A DNA stretch of 62,278 nt from the IMG/VR virus record IMGVR_UViG_3300009184_000003, positions 1-62,278 of that record; one strand, written 5' to 3'. A model generated the notes under the pieces. It did no database searches. It was not told the DNA's origin and saw nothing but the letters and a program-made list of their open reading frames with translations. Position numbers and translations under genes: made by a program. Origin of the DNA: a virus. Taxonomy: Duplodnaviria > Caudoviricetes. Position 1 is the stretch's first letter, and every line of letters starts with the position of its first letter. Shown here piece by piece: positions 3,709 to 44,413 of the stretch.

Positions 3709-6117
3709 ATGGGCGCCGAAAATACAAAAACTTTTGAAGTACCTCAGTCTGCTCCAATACAAGAACTTGACATAGAGGATAACCAAACGGAGTCTGCTCC
3801 TTATACCGGACCACGTTTGCGTGACTCCCGTGACATGGCCGCGTTTGGTGTTGGTACTGCTGCGGGTTTTCTTGCTGATTCTATGCAAAGACACGAAATA
3901 CAAAAAAGAATAAATGATGAAAACAAAACCCAAGCAGACGCTGCGTACATGGCGCAGATGCGTATGGAATTGCAGAGGATGCAAGACGCTGAATATCGAC
4001 GGCAGATTGATGCGCGTAATGAATTAATACGTCAACAACAAGCGCAATATCAACAAGAATTAGAAGCACACGCGCAAGCGGTAGCTGAGGCTAAAGCTAA
4101 TGAGCCTAAGCTATACGGCACAGGCACACAAAATTGGACAGACCAAGAGTACGCCGAGAAAATTGCTCGTCAAATCGATGACCCGCTCAGTAAGGGTATC
4201 GCTTCAAAAGAGGCAGAAAAAAGAATAGCCATGCAGTTAAAGGCGGAAGAGTTGTTCCCAAGTCAAGTGTTAGCAGGTAAAGGTTCGTTATTGACTATAC
4301 CGCTTATCCCTGGCGGTCAAACAGAAGTGCCAATGAGTATGCGTAAGGAAAAACCTGAACCGGCGCCGCTACCACCACCACCAAGTAAACCAGTGCCGCC
4401 ACCAATACCGCAACGAACTCCTATTCCTGAGCCACAACCGCGTGCGCAAGCACCTGAGCTTCCAAGTAAAATGCACTCAGCTGGAAGCGGTTTGATGGGT
4501 GGTTTGGCTGGTGCGGATTTGTTTGACGCATATCAAAATTTTAGACAAGGAAATATAAGAGAGGGTCTTACAAGTGCAGGCACAGGGCTCTCAGCTGCCG
4601 CCGCTTCGTACCTTAAAAATCCTAAACTTAGAGCACTCTTGGCGGCGCCCTCTATTTTGTCAAAAGGTTCTGGTTTGCTGGACTACTTTAGTGCTGGCCA
4701 ACCAGAACAGAAAAAAGCTGAAGGCGGGATGATCCACATGGCGGGTGGTGGTCTTGCACCACACGGTATGCGTCACAGTGGCGAGGGTGCAAAGGGTAAG
4801 GGCTACTTTGGCATGATGCCAAGCCAAGATATCGGCGAGGGTCCAGTGGACTACTCACTGGCAGCACAGCCACGTTCATCCGAGCTATCATTGGAGTCTG
4901 ATGGTATGGGCGAGTACCCCTCGTTAGTGCCAGGGTTGACTAAAGAAGAGATGGATTACATGCTGGCCGGTAACGAGCCAACTGAAAGCATTTTACAAAA
5001 AGCCAAAATGCACGCGATGATGCGTAAAAAAAAAGGCTTGAGCCCCTTCGCACAACCTGATGAGTTGCGTTATCCAGTGCCCAACTACGCAGCCGGAGGG
5101 CTATCTGTAGCTCAGAACGTAGCAAAGGCAGCAGCACCTAGAGCAAAAGCGGCGTACAAATATGGGTCTCAACAAGCAGGTAAATTATCTGACTGGGCTC
5201 AAAATTTTATGGATCAATACCTTGTCCCCACTCAAGCAGATCGTATGGGTGGTGTAGGCGGTCCTAGCTTTAGTGCTAATCAACTAGGCTTACCACAATA
5301 TGCTGATGTTGCTTGGGGTTCTGGTAAACAAGGAATTGCAACTGGTATCGCTAATTTAGCAAAAGATCCGCGTTTTGGGGGAACACAAGGGCAGATTTTT
5401 ACACCATTACTGGGTGAAGAAAGCCAACTCCGGTCAAATCAACTTGTATATGATAAGTTGATGAAGGAGTTTTATAAAAACCAAGGTAAGATGACGCCAG
5501 AGTTAATGGCTAAAATTAATTTATTTATGCAAGCCGGAGGCCCTAAAGCCAGCGGTGAATTGCGTTTTGCACCAATTGAAAAGTTTGACCTTTCTGATCA
5601 AGATATGATGAAAGAGTTGGGTAAAACATTTAAGTCACGTAGAGATATTGTTACACATGCATTGGGTGGTGAAGGCCTTGGAGGCAAGAAATCACAAATT
5701 ATCCCTTATGACGATATATTAAAATCAATGCAAGACCCATTTACTGTGGGTGCTCCTACATACGCATTAGGCCCTCGTGCATTTAGATTGAGTGGTAAAG
5801 TGGGACAAGAACCACGCCCTGATTTAAACAAAGCGTATCCATATATTCTACACGGCCAAGATATGAACGTGACATTCACACCAACACCAGCTGAGTTGGC
5901 GTTGATGGACTTTCAAAACCAATGGCGTAAACAAACAGGTAATACCATGCCATTAAAAAGTGGCGCATTACCACAAGCCCAGTATTATGAACTCACCGCA
6001 GGCTATAAACCGGAAGGTTCATCAGAGCGGGTATACCCAAGACAGAAAATAACTGAGGAATGGATTAAAGAGCTGCAACGTAGTGGTTTTGCGCAAGGTG
6101 GCCTGGCATCACTCTAA
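3709..6117 (+). CDS. Multi-module internal virion protein
   Basis: 802 aa; coiled coil, Pro-rich linker and modules separated by AEGG/MAGGG/YAAGG/FAQGG motifs. Confidence 0.6.
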   Translation: MGAENTKTFEVPQSAPIQELDIEDNQTESAPYTGPRLRDSRDMAAFGVGTAAGFLADSMQRHEIQKRINDENKTQADAAYMAQMRMELQRMQDAEYRRQIDARNELIRQQQAQYQQELEAHAQAVAEAKANEPKLYGTGTQNWTDQEYAEKIARQIDDPLSKGIASKEAEKRIAMQLKAEELFPSQVLAGKGSLLTIPLIPGGQTEVPMSMRKEKPEPAPLPPPPSKPVPPPIPQRTPIPEPQPRAQAPELPSKMHSAGSGLMGGLAGADLFDAYQNFRQGNIREGLTSAGTGLSAAAASYLKNPKLRALLAAPSILSKGSGLLDYFSAGQPEQKKAEGGMIHMAGGGLAPHGMRHSGEGAKGKGYFGMMPSQDIGEGPVDYSLAAQPRSSELSLESDGMGEYPSLVPGLTKEEMDYMLAGNEPTESILQKAKMHAMMRKKKGLSPFAQPDELRYPVPNYAAGGLSVAQNVAKAAAPRAKAAYKYGSQQAGKLSDWAQNFMDQYLVPTQADRMGGVGGPSFSANQLGLPQYADVAWGSGKQGIATGIANLAKDPRFGGTQGQIFTPLLGEESQLRSNQLVYDKLMKEFYKNQGKMTPELMAKINLFMQAGGPKASGELRFAPIEKFDLSDQDMMKELGKTFKSRRDIVTHALGGEGLGGKKSQIIPYDDILKSMQDPFTVGAPTYALGPRAFRLSGKVGQEPRPDLNKAYPYILHGQDMNVTFTPTPAELALMDFQNQWRKQTGNTMPLKSGALPQAQYYELTAGYKPEGSSERVYPRQKITEEWIKELQRSGFAQGGLASL

Positions 6118-11176: not shown

Positions 11177-11692
11177 TTATACTGCGAAGTCTGTTGCTGC
11201 GGACGAACCACCGCCCAAACGCTCACCATCCTCCAACTTCTGAAGGTTACCCAAACCGCAGGCTATGCCCTTACTGCCGTTGGAGTTGTATGGATAAAAC
11301 GTCAGACTGGCACGGCCATAACAACCGCTGTAAAACTCGTCTGGGTCGATGATGGGATTCAAATCCGCATCTACCACGCCAGGTTTTTGAACCGAGTTGG
11401 CGTTGATGAAGACCGCACCTTGGTACGCCTCGTCATCCTTCTCTGCATCGCCATCTCGCAGGCCGCCTTTGAGGCCTTTAGGGACCGCACCGCCAAAGAA
11501 TGGTCCAGATGCTGCCTTGACCTCCTCGAACGCCGCGTTGAGCTTGGCAATGGTCTCCTTGTCACTCTTGTCAATGATAATTGACACAGAATACTTGGGG
11601 GTCTTACCCTCTTCACTGGCTACGGCTTGGAAGACGTTAGCGTAAGAAAAACGGACCTTGCCGGTTACTACCTTCTTGTTTACTTTTGCCAT
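11177..11692 (-). CDS. Single-stranded DNA-binding protein (DUF2815, T7 gp2.5-like)
   Basis: VRFSYA, KYSVSII, LRDGD, FYSGCYGRA, GIACGLGNLQKLEDGERLGG, aromatic C-terminus; start MAKVNKK chosen. Confidence 0.9.
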   Translation of the reverse strand: MAKVNKKVVTGKVRFSYANVFQAVASEEGKTPKYSVSIIIDKSDKETIAKLNAAFEEVKAASGPFFGGAVPKGLKGGLRDGDAEKDDEAYQGAVFINANSVQKPGVVDADLNPIIDPDEFYSGCYGRASLTFYPYNSNGSKGIACGLGNLQKLEDGERLGGGSSAATDFAV

Positions 11693-11716
11693 CTTTTTTC
11701 CTTGTTTGACTTGAAC

Positions 11717-11750
11717 GACTGGACTTGATGCGGGTGCCAGTCTAAACCCG
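11717..11750 (-). promoter_or_regulatory. H-type RNA pseudoknot in the SSB leader
   Basis: CGGGU-UUA-GACUGG-C-ACCCG-CAUCAAGU-CCAGUC: stem1 5 bp, stem2 6 bp. Confidence 0.7.
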
Positions 11751-11773
11751 TACACATAATAACCCAAATTTCA

Positions 11774-12904
11774 CTATCCGAAATCACCGAAGTCACTGGG
11801 CGCCGTAAACTCTACTAGTTTAGCGGAACCTTCAGGTTTCACTATCAGGTCGCCAAGTAAACCTATGAGTTTCTCTTTCCCGACCACCTTCTCCAACTGC
11901 GCGACCGACTTCAATCTCGGGGGCTCAACAATATCCTCCACCTGAAAACCTTGTCTAAATAGCAACATTTTAACGCGGTCCTCGTCGTCAATCTTGCGCT
12001 TGGTTGAGGTGTATCCCAGTGTGAAACCCGCGGGTACATCGCCATCCACCGCACGCTTTAGTAGGTGCTCCTCGACGTCACTGATCCACTTCTTAATCAG
12101 ACCCGCACGCTTTAGTACGGTCACTAGCTCCTCCTCAGACAAGAGTGCCGGTGGTTTGAAGTCGTCTGCTACGGCTGCCTGCATGAAGTCACTACGGGCA
12201 CGACACTGGGACTTCGCACGACAGAACGTGCAGTGATCCCCAGGCATGAAGTCACCCGAGCCTGCCCACGCCTTCTTGGCCTTTGGTTTGACTACATGCT
12301 CCGCCCAGTCTAGTAGCTGAAACAGCTCCATCTTTTCCGTGCTGATGTGCTCCAACCTAGGCTGCGAGATGGTGTACTCAATGTGCGTAATATTGGGGTG
12401 CGCGTCCTTGTACATGTTCCACGTACCCAGCGCGTACAATCGAAGCTGTGGATTCTCTTCGGCGTCAATCTTGTTACCCACACCGAATTTTAAATCTATG
12501 ACACGTATCGTTGTGTTGTTAATGATAACCACGTCAGCCGTACCAAACCCCTCTGGCACCCAGTCACTGAAGTCTACGCGCTGCTCAAAGTATGGCGTGT
12601 CATTCTCGCCAATCTGAGAGCGAACGTATAGCACGTAGTCGTCTACGAACTTCTCAAACTCCTCGTCGTAGAACGGCGTCTCTTTTACCTCGTTGACTTC
12701 CTTGAGATACTCCGCCGCACTGATCTGGCCGTAGTGGCGCTTTAGTTTAGCCTCCGCTAACTTGTGTGCCGTTGTGCCATTGAGACTGTGGTCGAATGAC
12801 CCAGCTTTACGTTTTGGTTCAGGAAGGACAGACTCTAAGCGCGCACTGGGCGAGCAGCTCATCCACCTGTAAGCGCCAGAGGCGCTTAACATTGCGTGTG
12901 CCAT
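11774..12904 (-). CDS. DUF2800 PD-(D/E)XK (Cas4-like) exonuclease
   Basis: HAMLSAS..RW..C, GTTAH, FGTADVVI, IDLKFG, NPQLRLYALG, HCTFCRAKSQC. Confidence 0.9.
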   Translation of the reverse strand: MAHAMLSASGAYRWMSCSPSARLESVLPEPKRKAGSFDHSLNGTTAHKLAEAKLKRHYGQISAAEYLKEVNEVKETPFYDEEFEKFVDDYVLYVRSQIGENDTPYFEQRVDFSDWVPEGFGTADVVIINNTTIRVIDLKFGVGNKIDAEENPQLRLYALGTWNMYKDAHPNITHIEYTISQPRLEHISTEKMELFQLLDWAEHVVKPKAKKAWAGSGDFMPGDHCTFCRAKSQCRARSDFMQAAVADDFKPPALLSEEELVTVLKRAGLIKKWISDVEEHLLKRAVDGDVPAGFTLGYTSTKRKIDDEDRVKMLLFRQGFQVEDIVEPPRLKSVAQLEKVVGKEKLIGLLGDLIVKPEGSAKLVEFTAPSDFGDFG

Positions 12905-23556: not shown

Positions 23557-23610
23557 GTTTTATTCCAGTAGGCCTTTGTATATTTAAAAGGCTATGTTAA
23601 AAGGGTGTAC

Positions 23611-23755
23611 GGCTGTTCAGGTTGTCGGGGTATGTTCACTCTATTTTATATTTTTAATTTTAAAAAATAAAAAATAAAAAATAAATAGAATAGACCCCGA
23701 CAACCTGAACAGCCAGACAAAATCAATGACTTAGCTAACACTTTGTCAGGAACTT
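23611..23755. repeat. 145-bp element A: 21-bp perfect inverted arms around a 62-bp AT-rich core plus an IHF-like site; inverted copy at 28989-29133
   Basis: GGCTGTTCAGGTTGTCGGGGT (23611-23631) / ACCCCGACAACCTGAACAGCC (23694-23714); AATCAATGACTTA at 23721-23733. Confidence 0.92.
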
Positions 23756-25478: not shown

Positions 25479-25514
25479 GGTGTGCTCCTGTTGTGTTTGT
25501 GTGCACTACATACA

Positions 25515-25536
25515 TATGGTCAAACGGCACCATTTA
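25515..25536 (-). promoter_or_regulatory. 22-bp early repeat copy 2
   Basis: Identical sequence. Confidence 0.75.
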
Positions 25537-25839: not shown

Positions 25840-26121
25840 CTAGTATACGAATTGATCTGCTTCATCGAAAAAGGCGTTTACGCTGCTATCCATCACGGTC
25901 TCGTCAGGTTCCAGGCCATACAGGCTAACCACCGCCTTGCCTACTACCTCGCCGTCCTTATCGCGAATGGTCAGGAACGCCTCTTCAACCGACTCTATGG
26001 CCTCGATGATATCCTTGTAGCTGCTGCTGCGTACAGCCTGCCACTCTTCACCGTCGAACACGCTGACGGTGCACTCTTTGTTTAATGCGAATTTGATAAG
26101 TTGCTTGCATGCGTTTTTCAT
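25840..26121 (-). CDS. Hypothetical early protein
   Basis: VSVFDGEEW motif; GGAGCACACACC-ATG. Confidence 0.75.
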   Translation of the reverse strand: MKNACKQLIKFALNKECTVSVFDGEEWQAVRSSSYKDIIEAIESVEEAFLTIRDKDGEVVGKAVVSLYGLEPDETVMDSSVNAFFDEADQFVY

Positions 26122-26136
26122 GGTGTGTGCTCCTGA

Positions 26137-26415
26137 TTAGATTTGTGTTTCGGTCTTGGTGCCGGTGAATCCTTCATCGCTGTTGTATATCCAACGATGC
26201 GCTTTACTGATTAGCTCGAACGGGTCATAACCCTCGAATCGGTAGAGCAGTTTGCCACGGTAGCAAATATCTAAGACCATGTGTGAGGTCCCGTAGGCTC
26301 TATAGATTTTAATGGTCGCTGTTTTTGTCTTTATCATGGTGTGTGCTCCTATTAGTTGACGATTAAATTCACAATCTGCTAAACCATGCTGTTGCATTTC
26401 TTGTAATAAGCTCAT
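26137..26415 (-). CDS. Hypothetical early protein (alternative internal start at 26337)
   Basis: Two in-frame GGAGCAC RBS/ATG modules. Confidence 0.65.
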   Translation of the reverse strand: MSLLQEMQQHGLADCEFNRQLIGAHTMIKTKTATIKIYRAYGTSHMVLDICYRGKLLYRFEGYDPFELISKAHRWIYNSDEGFTGTKTETQI

Positions 26416-26430
26416 TTGTCTGTGCTCCTA

Positions 26431-26667
26431 TTATTTGAATGATTTATAAAAACTTATGAACTCTGCTTTGTTGGCACGGGCGATCACGAAAAATTCTACG
26501 ATCTCGCCCTCTTTGTCGCCGACCTCAGCGCAGTTGGTACTGGGGTAGCCGCTGCCACTCAGTGCATCTGAGATGGCCTCCACGGCGTCAGCGCCGCCCT
26601 CTATGGCCATCAGCACCGTGCCGCGAGGTATGTCTGCACCGTGCTTGCTAATTTCGTATGCTTTCAT
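26431..26667 (-). CDS. Hypothetical early protein
   Basis: GGAG RBS. Confidence 0.65.
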   Translation of the reverse strand: MKAYEISKHGADIPRGTVLMAIEGGADAVEAISDALSGSGYPSTNCAEVGDKEGEIVEFFVIARANKAEFISFYKSFK

Positions 26668-26669
26668 AA

Positions 26670-26942
26670 TTATCTCCCCAGTGCTTTGTTGATATAGTCG
26701 TCAGCAAATATGCTGAAACCGCCGATGTTCCACTTTATTACGTCCTGTGGCTTGCAGCTCTGCTTCCAGTCATAGACGCTAACCACGGTGCCGTCAGCGA
26801 ACTTCAGGCGCCACTCTGCCTGCGTCTTGTAGTCGTCGCCGCGCTCTGGCTCACCGAAGGCATCTACTAGGTCCCAGTAGCTTGCCTCAATGTAACCCTG
26901 CAGTGATGTGCCGTCGGTGTTTGCGTGTGTTGTGAATTGCAT
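26670..26942 (-). CDS. Conserved phage early protein
   Basis: GTSLQGYI..SY.DLV..FGEP...D.K...EW...F.DGTV..VYDWK. Confidence 0.75.
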   Translation of the reverse strand: MQFTTHANTDGTSLQGYIEASYWDLVDAFGEPERGDDYKTQAEWRLKFADGTVVSVYDWKQSCKPQDVIKWNIGGFSIFADDYINKALGR

Positions 26943-26984
26943 GGTGTGCTCCTGTTATGGTTGTGAAGTTGTGCTGCATATACA

Positions 26985-27006
26985 TATGGTCAAACGGCAC
27001 CATTTA
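26985..27006 (-). promoter_or_regulatory. 22-bp early repeat copy 3
   Basis: Identical sequence. Confidence 0.75.
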
Positions 27007-27328
27007 GCTCTTCGATGAATTTTGTTGCGCTATCGATATCGCGGCGGATACCGCGAATGGTAATTTCCAATGCGATGCGGCTCACGCGCTTTTTACTGAC
27101 CAGTGCGAGCAGGTCGTCAGTGTAGTGCGAATTCAGTGCACCGTAAGCGATATGGGCTCCGGTCTTGGCGTTGCCTGCCTCGACCAGTGCATCGATCTGC
27201 GCGTCAGTGATTTTTTTCTGGGCCCAGATGCCGTTCTGATTGAAGCAGTGGAACAGTGCTCTTTCCTTGTTACTCCACCCGCGTTGTACTTCGGTTGCTG
27301 TATTCAGTATTTTGTCAATTTTGCTCAT
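26990..27328 (-). CDS. Hypothetical early protein
   Basis: GGAGCACACC-ATG (MSKIDK); ends on a TGA inside the repeat. Confidence 0.7.
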   Translation of the reverse strand: MSKIDKILNTATEVQRGWSNKERALFHCFNQNGIWAQKKITDAQIDALVEAGNAKTGAHIAYGALNSHYTDDLLALVSKKRVSRIALEITIRGIRRDIDSATKFIEELNGAV

Positions 27329-27347
27329 GGTGTGCTCCGTGGTTGTT

Positions 27348-27399
27348 GGTCTCATCAGTGGCAGCCTGACTGCCAGACCGGCTCACGCCGGTTTCGACC
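27348..27399 (-). ncRNA. Type II hammerhead ribozyme 1
   Basis: GGUC-GAAA-CCGGC-GUGA-GCCGG-UC^-UGGCAG-UCAGG-CUGCCA-CUGAUGA-GACC; complete catalytic core. Confidence 0.93.
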
Positions 27400-27627
27400 T
27401 TATTTGAACAGGGCCAGTAGCTGCTCGGTGCCTGCCTCCCTAGTAGCAGGCAGGTCAGAGCGCCACAGGTCCGCCGAGTTGCGCAGGTTGCTAATAATGT
27501 ATAGCAGTGCCGCTGCGTTCGTGCGGTCCTTGGAACCGGCAGGCGACAGCGTGATAGCGATGGTGTTAAGCTTCTCGGCTGTGTCTTCAATGCTGCACAG
27601 GTCTTTGTATGTGAATAGTGGGCTCAT
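27400..27627 (-). CDS. Hypothetical early protein flanked by two hammerheads
   Basis: AGGAG RBS; TAA abuts ribozyme 1. Confidence 0.7.
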   Translation of the reverse strand: MSPLFTYKDLCSIEDTAEKLNTIAITLSPAGSKDRTNAAALLYIISNLRNSADLWRSDLPATREAGTEQLLALFK

Positions 27628-27653
27628 TGTAATTCTCCTATGGTGTGTGTATT

Positions 27654-27705
27654 GGTCTCATCAGCACTGGCCTAACCAGTGGACCGGCTCACGCCGGTTT
27701 CGACC
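27654..27705 (-). ncRNA. Type II hammerhead ribozyme 2
   Basis: Same core; stem I replaced by CACUGG/CCAGUG (compensatory changes). Confidence 0.93.
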
Positions 27706-27748
27706 TTACTTTTTTAAAGACTCTGCTGTTAACCCTTGAGCTAATTAT

Positions 27749-27976
27749 TTATTCATGGTGTGCTCCTATGATCTGGTTCCTGCCGCCGCCCTCGCCTGTC
27801 AGCCAGTCGTAGAGGTCGAATGCGTCCTTGTAGTAGATCTCCTGCTTGACCACTGGCTCGTACTCGCCGAACGCTGTCTCGAGTTTCTGGAGCACTTCCT
27901 TTTTAGTCTTACCAATGATGCTGTAAGTCTCACTGTCATCGGTGCGAACTGCAATCCATACTGTTAGCTTTGCCAT
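27749..27976 (-). CDS. Hypothetical early protein
   Basis: AGGAG RBS; YSII.KTKKE...FDL.DW..GEGGGR. Confidence 0.7.
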   Translation of the reverse strand: MAKLTVWIAVRTDDSETYSIIGKTKKEVLQKLETAFGEYEPVVKQEIYYKDAFDLYDWLTGEGGGRNQIIGAHHE

Positions 27977-28019
27977 GGTGATTCTCCTGTTTTGGTTGTG
28001 TTTGTGTGCCTTACATATA

Positions 28020-28041
28020 TATGGTCAAACGGCACCATTTA
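28020..28041 (-). promoter_or_regulatory. 22-bp early repeat copy 4
   Basis: Identical sequence. Confidence 0.75.
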
Positions 28042-28371
28042 GAACTTGATGAAGTAGGCAGGATCGAATCCGCCCCACTGCGCTGCGCGCTGTCCTACCA
28101 GTGCACCGACGCGCTGCTCTGGTGTGTAGACTGCTACGCAGTCCTGCTCCAGTATGTCGCTGATAGCAAGCGCTTCAGCATACACACGCTTCGGTGCTGT
28201 CTGGAACGCTGCGACAAGTGTCTGCTCTGTAGCTGACTGCTCGATCCTATACTCCACGAAGGCGAAGCGGCTGCGCAGTAGTACCAGTGCATACTCAGCG
28301 CGCGCTGTTAGCTGCTCTGGTGTGCTGGTTGTGTTGGGTACTTCTAAACCGATGTTAATTTGGTATTGCAT
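28039..28371 (-). CDS. Putative SAM lyase (T3 SAMase-like), first early gene
   Basis: TEQTLV and EQDCVAVY resemble T3 gp0.3 TEEKTV and EQDCVLVY as I recall them. Confidence 0.5.
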   Translation of the reverse strand: MQYQINIGLEVPNTTSTPEQLTARAEYALVLLRSRFAFVEYRIEQSATEQTLVAAFQTAPKRVYAEALAISDILEQDCVAVYTPEQRVGALVGQRAAQWGGFDPAYFIKF

Positions 28372-28408
28372 GGTGTGCTCCTAGGTTGTTTATCAGGTCT
28401 TACATATG

Positions 28409-28430
28409 TATGGTCAAACGGCACCATTTA
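28409..28430 (-). promoter_or_regulatory. 22-bp early repeat copy 5 (most upstream)
   Basis: Identical sequence; intergenic. Confidence 0.75.
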
Positions 28431-28527
28431 GCCTAGACACGATTCCACTGCTTAAAAATTAGGCAGTGCCGATTTTTTAGTATCTGAGCCCCCCACCACA
28501 CAGTCATATCGCGCACGCGTTGGTCTG

Positions 28528-28562
28528 CTAATGAGTCATAAGCCTGCGTTATGACTCATTAG
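28528..28562. repeat. Perfect 14-bp inverted repeat
   Basis: CTAATGAGTCATAA-N7-TTATGACTCATTAG. Confidence 0.9.
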
Positions 28563-28583
28563 TAATACAGTGACTCACCAGTC

Positions 28584-28820
28584 AGGCACGGTTCTTGCCT
28601 TAGCATATTGCGTGCCAGCCACCGCCCCAGTGAGTGCTCACTTCGCCAACTTGGTGCGCCCCAGTGAGTGCTCACTAACCTGGCCGGCCAAGCTGGCACA
28701 GATCTTGCTTCGAAGTGAGCGCTTACTTCGCCGGCTGCGTGGGCTCGGCACAGATCTTGCCTTAGCAAGAAGCGTGCCATGTTGGCAGGCATAAATCTTG
28801 CCTTAGCAAGTTCCGTGCCA
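28584..28820. promoter_or_regulatory. Array of seven sigma54 (-24/-12)-like boxes interleaved with AGTGAGYGCTYACT palindromes
   Basis: GGCAY-N5-TTGC at 28584, 28694, 28746, 28787 (+) and ending 28617, 28779, 28820 (-). Confidence 0.65.
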
Positions 28821-28988
28821 GACCGGCGGCTTGTTAATTAGGCAACACCCCGATTTGGGTCCCATCGGCGGGGCGGCTAGGGGGGCCCCCACAGAAAGCA
28901 AGTTTTTTACAAACGCCCAGTTTACAAAAAAGCACTTGCCTAATTTTTTTTTTATAATTTTTACAACACACTAAGTTGTTAATATGTT

Positions 28989-29133
28989 AAGTTCCTGACA
29001 AAAGTTGCGCTAAGTCCTTGATTTTGTCTGGCTGTTCAAGTTGTCGGGGTCTATTCTATTTATTTTATTTTTTTAATTCAACGCGAAAAAAATATCTATA
29101 AAGAGCAAACATACCCCGACAACCTGAACACCC
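28989..29133. repeat. 145-bp element B, inverted copy of 23611-23755
   Basis: Arms 29030-29050 / 29113-29133, 62-bp AT core, IHF-like TAAGTCCTTGATT at 29011-29023. Confidence 0.92.
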
Positions 29134-42526: not shown

Positions 42527-44413
42527 ATGGCCGATATAAGTATATTACAGCTGCCTCCCGCAACCACCGTCAGTGCAAATGACGTGACGGTTGTCGTGCA
42601 AAATGGCATAACAAAAAAGGTTGCCGCCTCTGTATTTCAAGGCGGCATTATTGGACCTGTTGGCCCCATAGGCCCAGCTGGTCCTACAGGCCCATTAGGA
42701 CCCACAGGCCCGTTAGGCCCGTTAGGCCCAACAGGAACACCAGGACAACAGGGACCACAGGGAGCCCCTGGACCTGTAGGTAGCGTAGGAGCCACAGGAC
42801 CCACAGGCCCAACAGGCGCAAGCGGCACGGCAGGTGCAACCGGCCCAACAGGCGCAACCGGCCCAACGGGTACAGGCGCAACTGGCCCTACAGGTGCTAC
42901 AGGCCCCACAGGCCCCGCAGGCGGCCCCACAGGCCCTACAGGTAACACAGGTGCAACTGGTCCAACAGGCCCCACAGGTGCGGCGGGTACAGCTGGGACA
43001 ACTGGCCCCCCAGGTGATACAGGCGCAACTGGCCCAACAGGTGCAACCGGCCCATCAGGCACAGGCCCTACAGGCCCGACAGGCGCAGCGGGTGCAACTG
43101 GTCCAACAGGCGCAACTGGCCCATCAGGTACAGGCCCCACAGGCCCTACAGGTCCAACGGGTGCAGCCGGTACTGCAGGCGCAACTGGTCCAACAGGTGC
43201 AACTGGCCCATCAGGTACAGGCCCCATAGGCCCCACAGGCCCAACGGGTGCAGCCGGTACGGCAGGTGCAACAGGCCCCACAGGCCCAACGGGTGCAGCC
43301 GGTACGGCAGGTGCAACTGGTCCAACAGGCCCAACGGGTGCAGCCGGTACGGCAGGTGCAACTGGTCCAACAGGAGCAACTGGCCCATCGGGCACAGGCC
43401 CCACAGGCCCAACAGGCCCAACAGGTGCTGCAGGTACGGCAGGTGCAACAGGCCCAACAGGCCCCACCGGCCCTGCGGGTAGCGGCGGTGGTGACGTAGT
43501 TGGACCAGCTTCAGCAACGGATAACGCTATTGCTCGATTTGATACTACTACAGGCAAGTTAATCCAGAATTCGGGCGTTACTATTGATGACAATAATAAT
43601 GTTAGTGCCAATTCGTTTTTAAATGGTTTTTCAAATACCGCTGCATCAGGCACACAAATCACACTAACAATTGCCTCCGTTACTTCGTACAATATTACTG
43701 GATCAGGCGGCCAAGTTATTCAGTTACCAAATGCTACGACATTGTCAAATGGCGCGCTCTATGAATTTAATAACAATCAATCAAGCGGCGCGATTACAGT
43801 AAACAACAACTCAGGAACATTAATTGTTAGTGTTCCATCGGGTGGCTATGTACAACTCACTTTGCTATCTAACGCGACTGCTGCAGGAAGTTGGGATAGA
43901 CATGACCTAGCACCAGCCAATGTGTCGTGGTCAACTAATACGTTTGATTACCCAGGGTCAATTACATCAGCCACGTGGAATGGAAATGCTGTAGCAACAA
44001 ACCGTGGCGGCACAGGGGCATCTTCACTCGCCGGCGCGTCGATTGTTACCTATACAGGCACTGAGACACTAACGAACAAACGTATTAATCCTCGTGTAGT
44101 TACTGCGGCATCAACTGCGACATTGGCACCAGATATTTCATCAGGTGACCAATATAATTTAACCGCTCAAGCAGCAGCATTAACTGTTTCTGCGCCTATT
44201 GGATCATCGCAATCACCTGTAGATGGTAATAAATTAATATTTAGAGTATTAGACAATGGTACAGCTAGAGCGATAACGTGGAATGCAACGTATACGCCTA
44301 TTGGTGTAACGCTACCGACTACAACAACAGTAAATAAAACCACGTATGTTGGTTGCATATACAACGCAAACAACACCCGTTGGGATGTTATTGCTGTGCT
44401 TACACAGGCTTAA
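42527..44413 (+). CDS. Collagen-like tail fibre
   Basis: [11 protein letters not shown]-terminal anchor, ~90 G-X-Y triplets (mostly GPT/GAT), [18 protein letters not shown] motif. Confidence 0.85.

Follow-up and report, generated by a model that had tools for sequence, protein, structure and literature searches.

Genome, genes and repeats at the locus

The DNA under study, called the window below and meaning the whole stretch of 62,278 nt, is a complete 62,278-bp IMG/VR virus record with direct terminal repeats. Its source is an uncultured freshwater phage of lytic appearance. A block of small ORFs is oriented on the minus strand and is followed by replication genes, encoding a primase/D5-type helicase, an SNF2 helicase, DUF2800, class II RNR-like domains and a family A DNA polymerase; the opposite block, with the terminase gene first, is oriented on the plus strand. 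Two hammerhead ribozyme motifs, HH-B and HH-A, are found among the small genes. The features of the region are as follows:

from 29,251, plus strand: opposite gene block, terminase first
about 28,800 down to about 19,000, minus strand: small-ORF block
28399-28431, 28010-28042 and 26975-27007, minus strand: conserved intergenic element, a 33-nt repeat (repeat family)
25507-25525, minus strand: fourth copy of the intergenic element, 19-nt core (pattern match)
27749..27976, minus strand: P0003 (75 aa), presumed first cistron of a three-gene unit (ORF translation)
27753..27766, minus strand: vestigial copy of the initiation sequence GGAGCACACCATG within the 3' end of P0003 (repeat D4 and sequence read)
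27654..27705, minus strand: HH-B, predicted type II hammerhead ribozyme, 52 nt (sequence, Rfam RF02276, our own model R1, minimum free energy (MFE) fold, descriptor)
27400..27627, minus strand: P0001 (75 aa), gene between the two hammerheads, conserved small protein (ORF translation and homologues)
27348..27399, minus strand: HH-A, predicted type II hammerhead ribozyme, 52 nt (same evidence as for HH-B)
26990..27328, minus strand: P0002 (112 aa), third cistron (ORF translation)

P0001 starts with the ATG at 27627, served by the RBS AGGAG (27639-27635), and P0002 with the ATG at 27328, preceded by GGAG (27338-27335). Homologues of P0001 form four clusters with 71-93% identity, all of them 74-76 aa long, and the alignment of these clusters has a near-invariant C-terminal half; on its sequence, P0001 can be taken as a real gene. 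No PHROG family match was found for P0001 or P0002, and that of P0003 is weak (E = 0.009). Among the viral contigs searched, no close relatives of P0001 with genomic context were found, and a distant-mode query of the INPHARED phage collection with positions 26000-29000 gave no match. An early status of P0003, P0001 and P0002 is plausible, its sole basis being their position beside the divergent intergenic region. Elsewhere in the genome, a probable tail fibre, a 628-aa protein of the structural region (42527-44413, plus strand), contains collagen triple-helix repeats (Pfam PF01391, E = 5e-31). On the minus strand, positions 11690-11750 weakly match the Rfam DUF2815 RNA motif (29.7 bits with a gathering score of 41.2, E = 0.13); the match is just upstream of ORF 11177-11767 and adjoins the DUF2800 gene (11774-12904).

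The intergenic element has the consensus CTAAATGGTGCCGTTTGACCATATGTATGTAGGGCAC, with four pattern matches in place of the 0.05 expected. All four copies sit approximately 25-30 nt ahead of a shared RBS and start sequence, GGAGCACACCATG, which is itself a four-copy repeat (D4), and the copy at 28010-28042 is placed just upstream of P0003. The element could be aligned with two copies, at about 5380-5400 and 5895-5920, in the related contig L006, and in at least P0002 its 5' part also serves as the closing codons (LNGAV-stop). Candidate identities for the element are a phage-specific promoter and a processing site. A sigma-70 reading of the 33-nt repeat was rejected, as no acceptable -10/-35 pair was seen by eye and no promoter match fell at the repeat sites. 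Should the element act in either of these ways, P0003, P0001 and P0002 would form one unit delimited by it, in which both internal junctions are hammerheads. No terminator-like sites were found on the minus strand between 28,400 and 26,900, and it is this, together with the positions of the repeat, that suggests a single transcript for the three genes.

A near-perfect palindrome with 56-nt arms (84% complementary) occupies positions 23606-23719; its RNA fold has an energy of -62.9 kcal/mol (z = -11.7), and both of its strands match plant miRNA models. At 28985-29078, beside sigma-70-like promoter matches, there is a related copy of 94 nt (88%). The two palindromes enclose the whole 5.2-kb small-gene block with the hammerheads and are possible shared promoter/operator, terminator or boundary elements.

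The two hammerheads and their subfamily

Read on the minus strand from 27705 to 27654, HH-B consists of the elements GGUC GAAA CCGGC GUGA GCCGG UC / CACUGGU UAG GCCAGUG CUGAUGA GACC, where the slash is the predicted cut. HH-A (27399-27348) has the same layout except for stem I, which is UGGCAGU CAG GCUGCCA. In both copies stem II is the 4-bp pairing of GGUC with GACC (27705-27702 and 27657-27654 in HH-B). With loops closing stems I and III and stem II left open, HH-A and HH-B are both assigned to type II. The hammerhead core is made up of C3-U4-G5-A6-N7-G8-A9, G12-A13-A14, the A15.1-U16.1 pair and H17 at the cut. It is whole in both copies (CUGAUGA, GAAA, A-U and GUC). N7 is U in each; in the family all four bases occur there. 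A preliminary description of this DNA, made from the letters alone, had claimed two 52-nt type II hammerheads on the coding strand with perfect cores, identical stems II and III, and a stem I that differs and stays paired. All of this was borne out by the direct minus-strand reading of both copies and by their folds: stem I has six differences per strand between HH-A and HH-B with pairing complete (7 bp counting the closing U-G), and for both 52-mers (-23.3 and -24.0 kcal/mol) the MFE and centroid structures are the same three-way junction, with and without flanks.

C17 is predicted at 27682 in HH-B and at 27376 in HH-A, which places the cuts at 27682/27681 and 27376/27375. The predicted product of 306 nt extends from 27681 to 27376 and holds the AGGAG, the ATG and the ORF of P0001 as far as its TAA (27402-27400); for the cut positions and the 306-nt unit the coordinates first proposed are correct as predictions. 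HH-A abuts this TAA, the stop of ORF 27400-27627, and ends 19 nt upstream of the ATG of P0002. At HH-B, the annotated upstream ORF stops 43 nt before the ribozyme (at 27749) and the start is at +26. Each hammerhead had been described as beginning right after a TAA and lying just ahead of an RBS. The RBS is indeed present after both copies (AGGAG after HH-B, GGAG after HH-A) and the TAA before HH-A is a true stop, but the upstream ORF does not end at the TAA that precedes HH-B (27708-27706). The vestigial copy of GGAGCACACCATG at 27753-27766 is followed by ATG AAT AAA TAA, and relatives in two DNA runs have 9 other letters in place of the 65 nt at 27707-27771. This vestigial initiation sequence near the end of P0003 is likely the scar of a lost gene. 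Such a deleted-gene scar at 27707-27771 would explain why HH-B follows a TAA that is no true stop codon.

Both copies match Rfam model RF02276 (Hammerhead_II) over its full length (positions 1-66) at 30.1 bits, with an E-value of 0.0004 in a 551-nt search and 0.045 in the whole window. A search with type II models had been suggested as a check; both copies were recovered in a permissive RF02276 scan and neither in a default scan, which is blank because the gathering score is 37 and both copies fall short of it. A relaxed type II descriptor of our own (at least 4 bp in stems I and III, at least 2 bp in stem II, cores GAAA, UH and CUGANGA) found exactly two sites in the 62,278-nt window, HH-A and HH-B, and none in 200 of 200 dinucleotide shuffles. 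A covariance model, R1, was built from 50 aligned family sequences; HH-B and HH-A, both members of its training set, score 76.5 and 77.4 bits, and they are its only matches in the window, the next best reaching 11.2 bits (E = 0.36).

Most type II hammerheads rely on a pseudoknot of loop I with the 3' tail for rapid cleavage. No complement to loop I of at least 3 nt was found in the first 20 nt of the 3' tail of HH-A or HH-B. In the subfamily a loop I/3'-tail complement of at least 4 bp occurs in 30 of 136 sequences with a mean of 28.4 in 500 permutations, which is no enrichment, and pairing of loop I with the 5' tail was not enriched either. A 4-nt CAGG/CCUG match upstream of HH-A was treated as chance. 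With no recognisable tertiary contact and a stem II of 4 bp, cleavage at physiological Mg2+ could be slow.

In 18 other viral contigs the 24-nt stem II/III segment recurs letter for letter, combined with at least six different, fully paired stem I sequences; among these contigs position 7 is U or C. A looser family pattern, GGUCGAAAC..GUC..CUGANGAGACC, is found in at least 120 viral stretches and in at least 120 stretches of bacterial and archaeal assemblies, the latter spread over many phyla and therefore uninformative on the host. Among the matches listed, 137 of 143 distinct ones have at least 4 bp in both unconstrained stems. The alignment was made from 50 of the 136 well-formed listed matches, a subset selected for the exact geometry of the window. 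In it 99.5% of the 850 cells pair, both sides vary in 10 of the 17 pairs, and 202 cells are compensatory, where shuffled alignments give 59.4 ± 6.1. For pairing percentage, number of compensatory cells and covariation score alike, the observed value was not reached in any of 500 shuffles, and controls with slid partners gave 27-46% pairing. The covariation argues strongly for stems I and III as drawn; the search pattern fixes stem II and the two initial pairs of stem III, which are therefore uninformative. Conservation that the pattern did not impose was also seen in the 50 sequences: U33 and the A ahead of stem II never vary, and G32, G37 and C38 are each present at 90% or more. The string G-U-NNN-G-C is the conserved stem I apex of the subfamily.

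Model R1 gave 217 matches in 132 of the 133 other viral loci (loci drawn from the matches listed), counts which, like the spacings and placements below, are not independent events, because overlapping pieces and near-identical phages are included. One copy is present in 84 of the 132 loci, two in 31, three in 8, four in 6, five in 1 and nine in 2, so that 48 loci hold 2-9 copies, and no locus has copies on both strands. Neighbouring copies are 219-1575 nt apart (85 spacings, median 447 nt), and the 306 nt of the window is thus typical. Downstream, an SD-like site and the start of an ORF (30 codons or more) lie within 60 nt in 168 of 196 distinct instances, most often at 19 nt. Upstream, 177 of the 196 have the stop codon of an ORF, again of 30 codons or more, no further than 45 nt away, and in 152 of them it is at -1 to +5 nt of stem II. 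HH-A (stop distance 0, start at +19) has the textbook placement, and HH-B is the exception. Distant relatives L118, L126 and L114, about 68-70% identical in the terminase region, also carry hammerheads, four of them in L118 and three in L114. The array of L118 resembles the window in lying a few kb from the terminase gene on the opposite strand.

A sub-group of hammerheads (L026, L047, L051, L069, L099, L103, L119, L124, L130, L134 and L135) has AUCAG directly after stem II, mostly together with a 6-bp stem I and a 5-nt loop. AUCAG complements the CUGAU of the core, and the two may pair after cleavage or in an alternative hairpin that inactivates the ribozyme. This element is absent from HH-A and HH-B.

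The motif, its fold, the covariation across the family and the placement between stop codon and RBS are observed features. From the sequence of both copies and their relatives, HH-A and HH-B are judged genuine type II hammerhead motifs, with self-cleavage predicted.

Role of the hammerheads

Two active hammerheads probably cut the P0003-P0001-P0002 transcript into three single-gene mRNAs with protected ends and an independent RBS each. Among the functions considered, this processing of a polycistron has the most support, drawn from the anatomy of the locus and the context of the family; we infer cleavage in vivo, co-transcription of the three genes and an effect on stability or translation. 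Self-cleavage during or soon after transcription would separate the three cistrons. The type II permutation means that each cut should leave a closed hairpin at both new ends. The upstream product would end in the stem III hairpin and C17 with a 2',3'-cyclic phosphate. The downstream product would begin with a 5'-OH directly at the stem I hairpin, continue with 11 nt of core plus stem II, and then with a leader of 19-26 nt carrying the Shine-Dalgarno sequence. Each cistron would thereby receive defined, exonuclease-resistant ends and a ribosome site that does not depend on context. In the decay of bacterial mRNA, a 3'-OH tail must be accessible for 3' exonucleases and poly(A) polymerase to act, and single-stranded ends with a 5'-monophosphate are the preferred substrates of RNase E and RNase J. 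Given these preferences, both ends of a product with terminal hairpins, a 5'-OH and a cyclic phosphate should be protected.

Processing into single-gene mRNAs was already proposed by Perreault et al. (2011, PLoS Comput Biol, PMC3088659), whose article, in the part available, reports three tandem prophage arrangements with transcripts of about 2 kb in which all ribozymes cleaved. A 2019 review states that the purpose of phage hammerheads needs additional work. For the synthetic hammerhead RiboJ in E. coli, the available part of Clifton et al. (2018, PMC6206723) gives an approximately 2-fold rise in transcript abundance and a 2-10-fold rise in protein, for which the terminal hairpin remaining after cleavage is the authors' possible explanation. 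The family statistics presented above (stop codon, ribozyme, about 19 nt, start codon, always on one strand) sharpen the hypothesis of a natural insulator.

The preliminary description went further and proposed that the 306-nt fragment is ligated into a circular P0001 mRNA, by host RtcB or, one may add, by the reverse reaction of the hammerhead. RNA ends with a 5'-OH and a 2',3'-cyclic phosphate are RtcB substrates, those of the excised RNA would suit this enzyme, and RtcB is common in bacteria (a control search matched 10 of 14 reference genomes). The accompanying claim that the ligated circle regenerates an intact hammerhead is correct by the sequence of both copies: stems II and III are identical in HH-A and HH-B, and joining the ends would rebuild a complete chimeric ribozyme. 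The rebuilt ribozyme, however, would re-cut the circle, and the 306-nt RNA has a branched fold (MFE -106.1 kcal/mol, z = -2.9) and not the rod-like one that could lock it off. P0001 has its own stop codon, so a circle offers no obvious coding gain, and in 84 of the 132 loci, where the motif is single, no circle is possible. A six-frame search of the genome revealed no phage-encoded RtcB (PF01139) or Rnl-type RNA ligase (PF09414), and no ligase was present among the 20 ORFs scanned with Pfam of the 28 with at least 200 aa. None of the 24 sequencing runs found is listed as RNA. Circular or spliced products of such arrangements were sought and not detected, according to the available part of Perreault et al. 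(2011, PMC3088659). On the branched fold, the expected re-cleavage, the missing phage ligase and that report, the circular mRNA was set aside as very improbable. A conditional or slow cleavage in place of constitutive processing, gated for instance by the terminating ribosome, by Mg2+ or by unmasking of the SD and setting relative expression or timing, is somewhat less improbable but still unlikely. The short stem II and the want of a recognisable tertiary contact suggest sub-maximal speed, and a ribosome terminating at -1 to +5 nt, as in 152 of 196 instances, would cover stem II; at HH-A with its flanks, CUGU at the end of P0001 pairs in the MFE structure with ACGG overlapping the SD region of P0002. 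Regulated cleavage of phage hammerheads was also raised in the part of Perreault et al. (2011, PMC3088659) available. Nevertheless, this flank helix is weak (structure frequency 0.09, z = -1.1) and absent at HH-B, the tight spacing to the stop codon can be explained by genome compaction alone, and no ligand-binding or switch element is visible at HH-A or HH-B. Least credible of all are inactive relics or chance look-alikes without RNA function: the Rfam scores do fall under the gathering threshold, but the descriptor matched in 0 of 200 shuffles, neither copy has lost a core position, the changes in stem I are compensated in full both from HH-A to HH-B and in the wider family, and placement and strand are stereotyped.

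A role at the DNA level, which is compatible with processing, is put forward tentatively. According to it, the hammerhead with its leader and RBS serves as a conserved linker for the exchange, gain or loss of small-gene cassettes among related phages by homologous recombination. In contigs of relatives from three DNA runs in three studies, position 27340 is joined to 27652 with 8 other letters between; this joined form is a single hammerhead with the stem I of HH-B right before the P0002 start, lacking both HH-A and P0001. The two-hammerhead form of the window itself is present in DNA run X2, and other contigs diverge inside HH-A, at 27358 and 27380, into a different stem I or stem III. As read from these contigs, one hammerhead plus P0001 is a unit of presence or absence in the DNA. 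L006, 82-90% identical to the window in neighbouring regions, has one chimeric hammerhead (86-94.5% identity) with an HH-B-like stem I and the exact 3' leader and RBS of HH-A; it is conserved there between genes unrelated to P0003, P0001 and P0002. Taken together, the relatives with one hammerhead and no P0001 and the unrelated flanking genes of L006 suggest that the ribozyme marks the edge of a swappable gene cassette. Yet any conserved intergenic sequence appears as an island of homology between swapped genes, and the 33-nt element and the shared RBS sequence behave alike here. Logan contigs break where related genomes branch, so ends inside a repeat are expected, and the joined forms stem from diverged relatives and not from a precise deletion of the present genome. 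No literature tying hammerheads to phage mosaicism or recombination was found by title and abstract.

Processing of the transcript remains the favoured function, and the two roles might be served at once. In such a combination, to which we give about the same modest credence as to the linker itself, hammerhead, leader and RBS would be a recombination linker for small early genes and simultaneously an RNA insulator freeing new arrivals from their neighbours, the 306-bp unit being one cassette. A complete genome with exactly two ribozymes and one conserved 75-aa gene is of some use as a test case. The natural relatives with one ribozyme and no gene, set against the two-ribozyme form, offer a ready comparison for the effect of cleavage on the flanking cistrons, and with this locus one can test ribozymes as possible markers of the joints at which phage gene cassettes recombine.

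Comparison with known systems

Hammerheads in phages had been said to be known already, and the clusters of Perreault et al. (2011, PMC3088659), in which hammerheads lie on either side of one prophage gene or a short block of genes, confirm this. As far as the available part of that article describes them, those clusters are similar to the present locus in having same-strand tandem hammerheads, type II among them, in phage DNA, bracketing small genes of varying identity. Processing of a long transcript to single-gene mRNAs was proposed there too, and circular or spliced products were considered. In the same source the clusters belong to prophages of cultured bacteria, whereas here the genome is that of a complete 62-kb freshwater phage. 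The arrangement is reproduced in the window by two minus-strand copies, 306 nt apart and the only two in the genome, which flank one 75-aa ORF. The majority of type II hammerheads have a pseudoknot between loop I and the 3' tail according to the available part of Perreault et al. (2011, PMC3088659), and HH-A and HH-B differ from those published ribozymes in lacking it. The GGUC/GACC subfamily may already be listed in that study.

Relative to RF02276, the core, the permutation, the 5'-A before stem II and the capped stems I and III are the same. Stem II has 2 bp in the RF02276 consensus and 4 bp here, the consensus is pseudoknotted whereas HH-A and HH-B have no partner in the 3' tail, and the G-U-NNN-G-C apex of stem I is a feature of the present subfamily (50 sequences). 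RiboJ, as presented in the available part of Clifton et al. (2018, PMC6206723), is alike in that a hammerhead right upstream of the RBS removes the upstream RNA and leaves a hairpin at the 5' end. It is unlike in being synthetic, derived from the sTRSV plant satellite RNA and supplied with an added hairpin, so the analogy is functional and implies no kinship. In retrozymes and viroid-like circular RNAs, too, a unit of a few hundred nucleotides with ligatable ends lies between same-strand hammerheads (de la Pena et al. 2020, PMC7761336, in the part available). In contrast, theirs are non-coding or replicative, form stable rods and accumulate as circles, while the 306-nt unit is a protein-coding cistron with a branched fold (z = -2.9).

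In phages, the layout of hammerheads around a single gene has been on record since 2011, and the case described here is a clean new example of it, not a new type of system.
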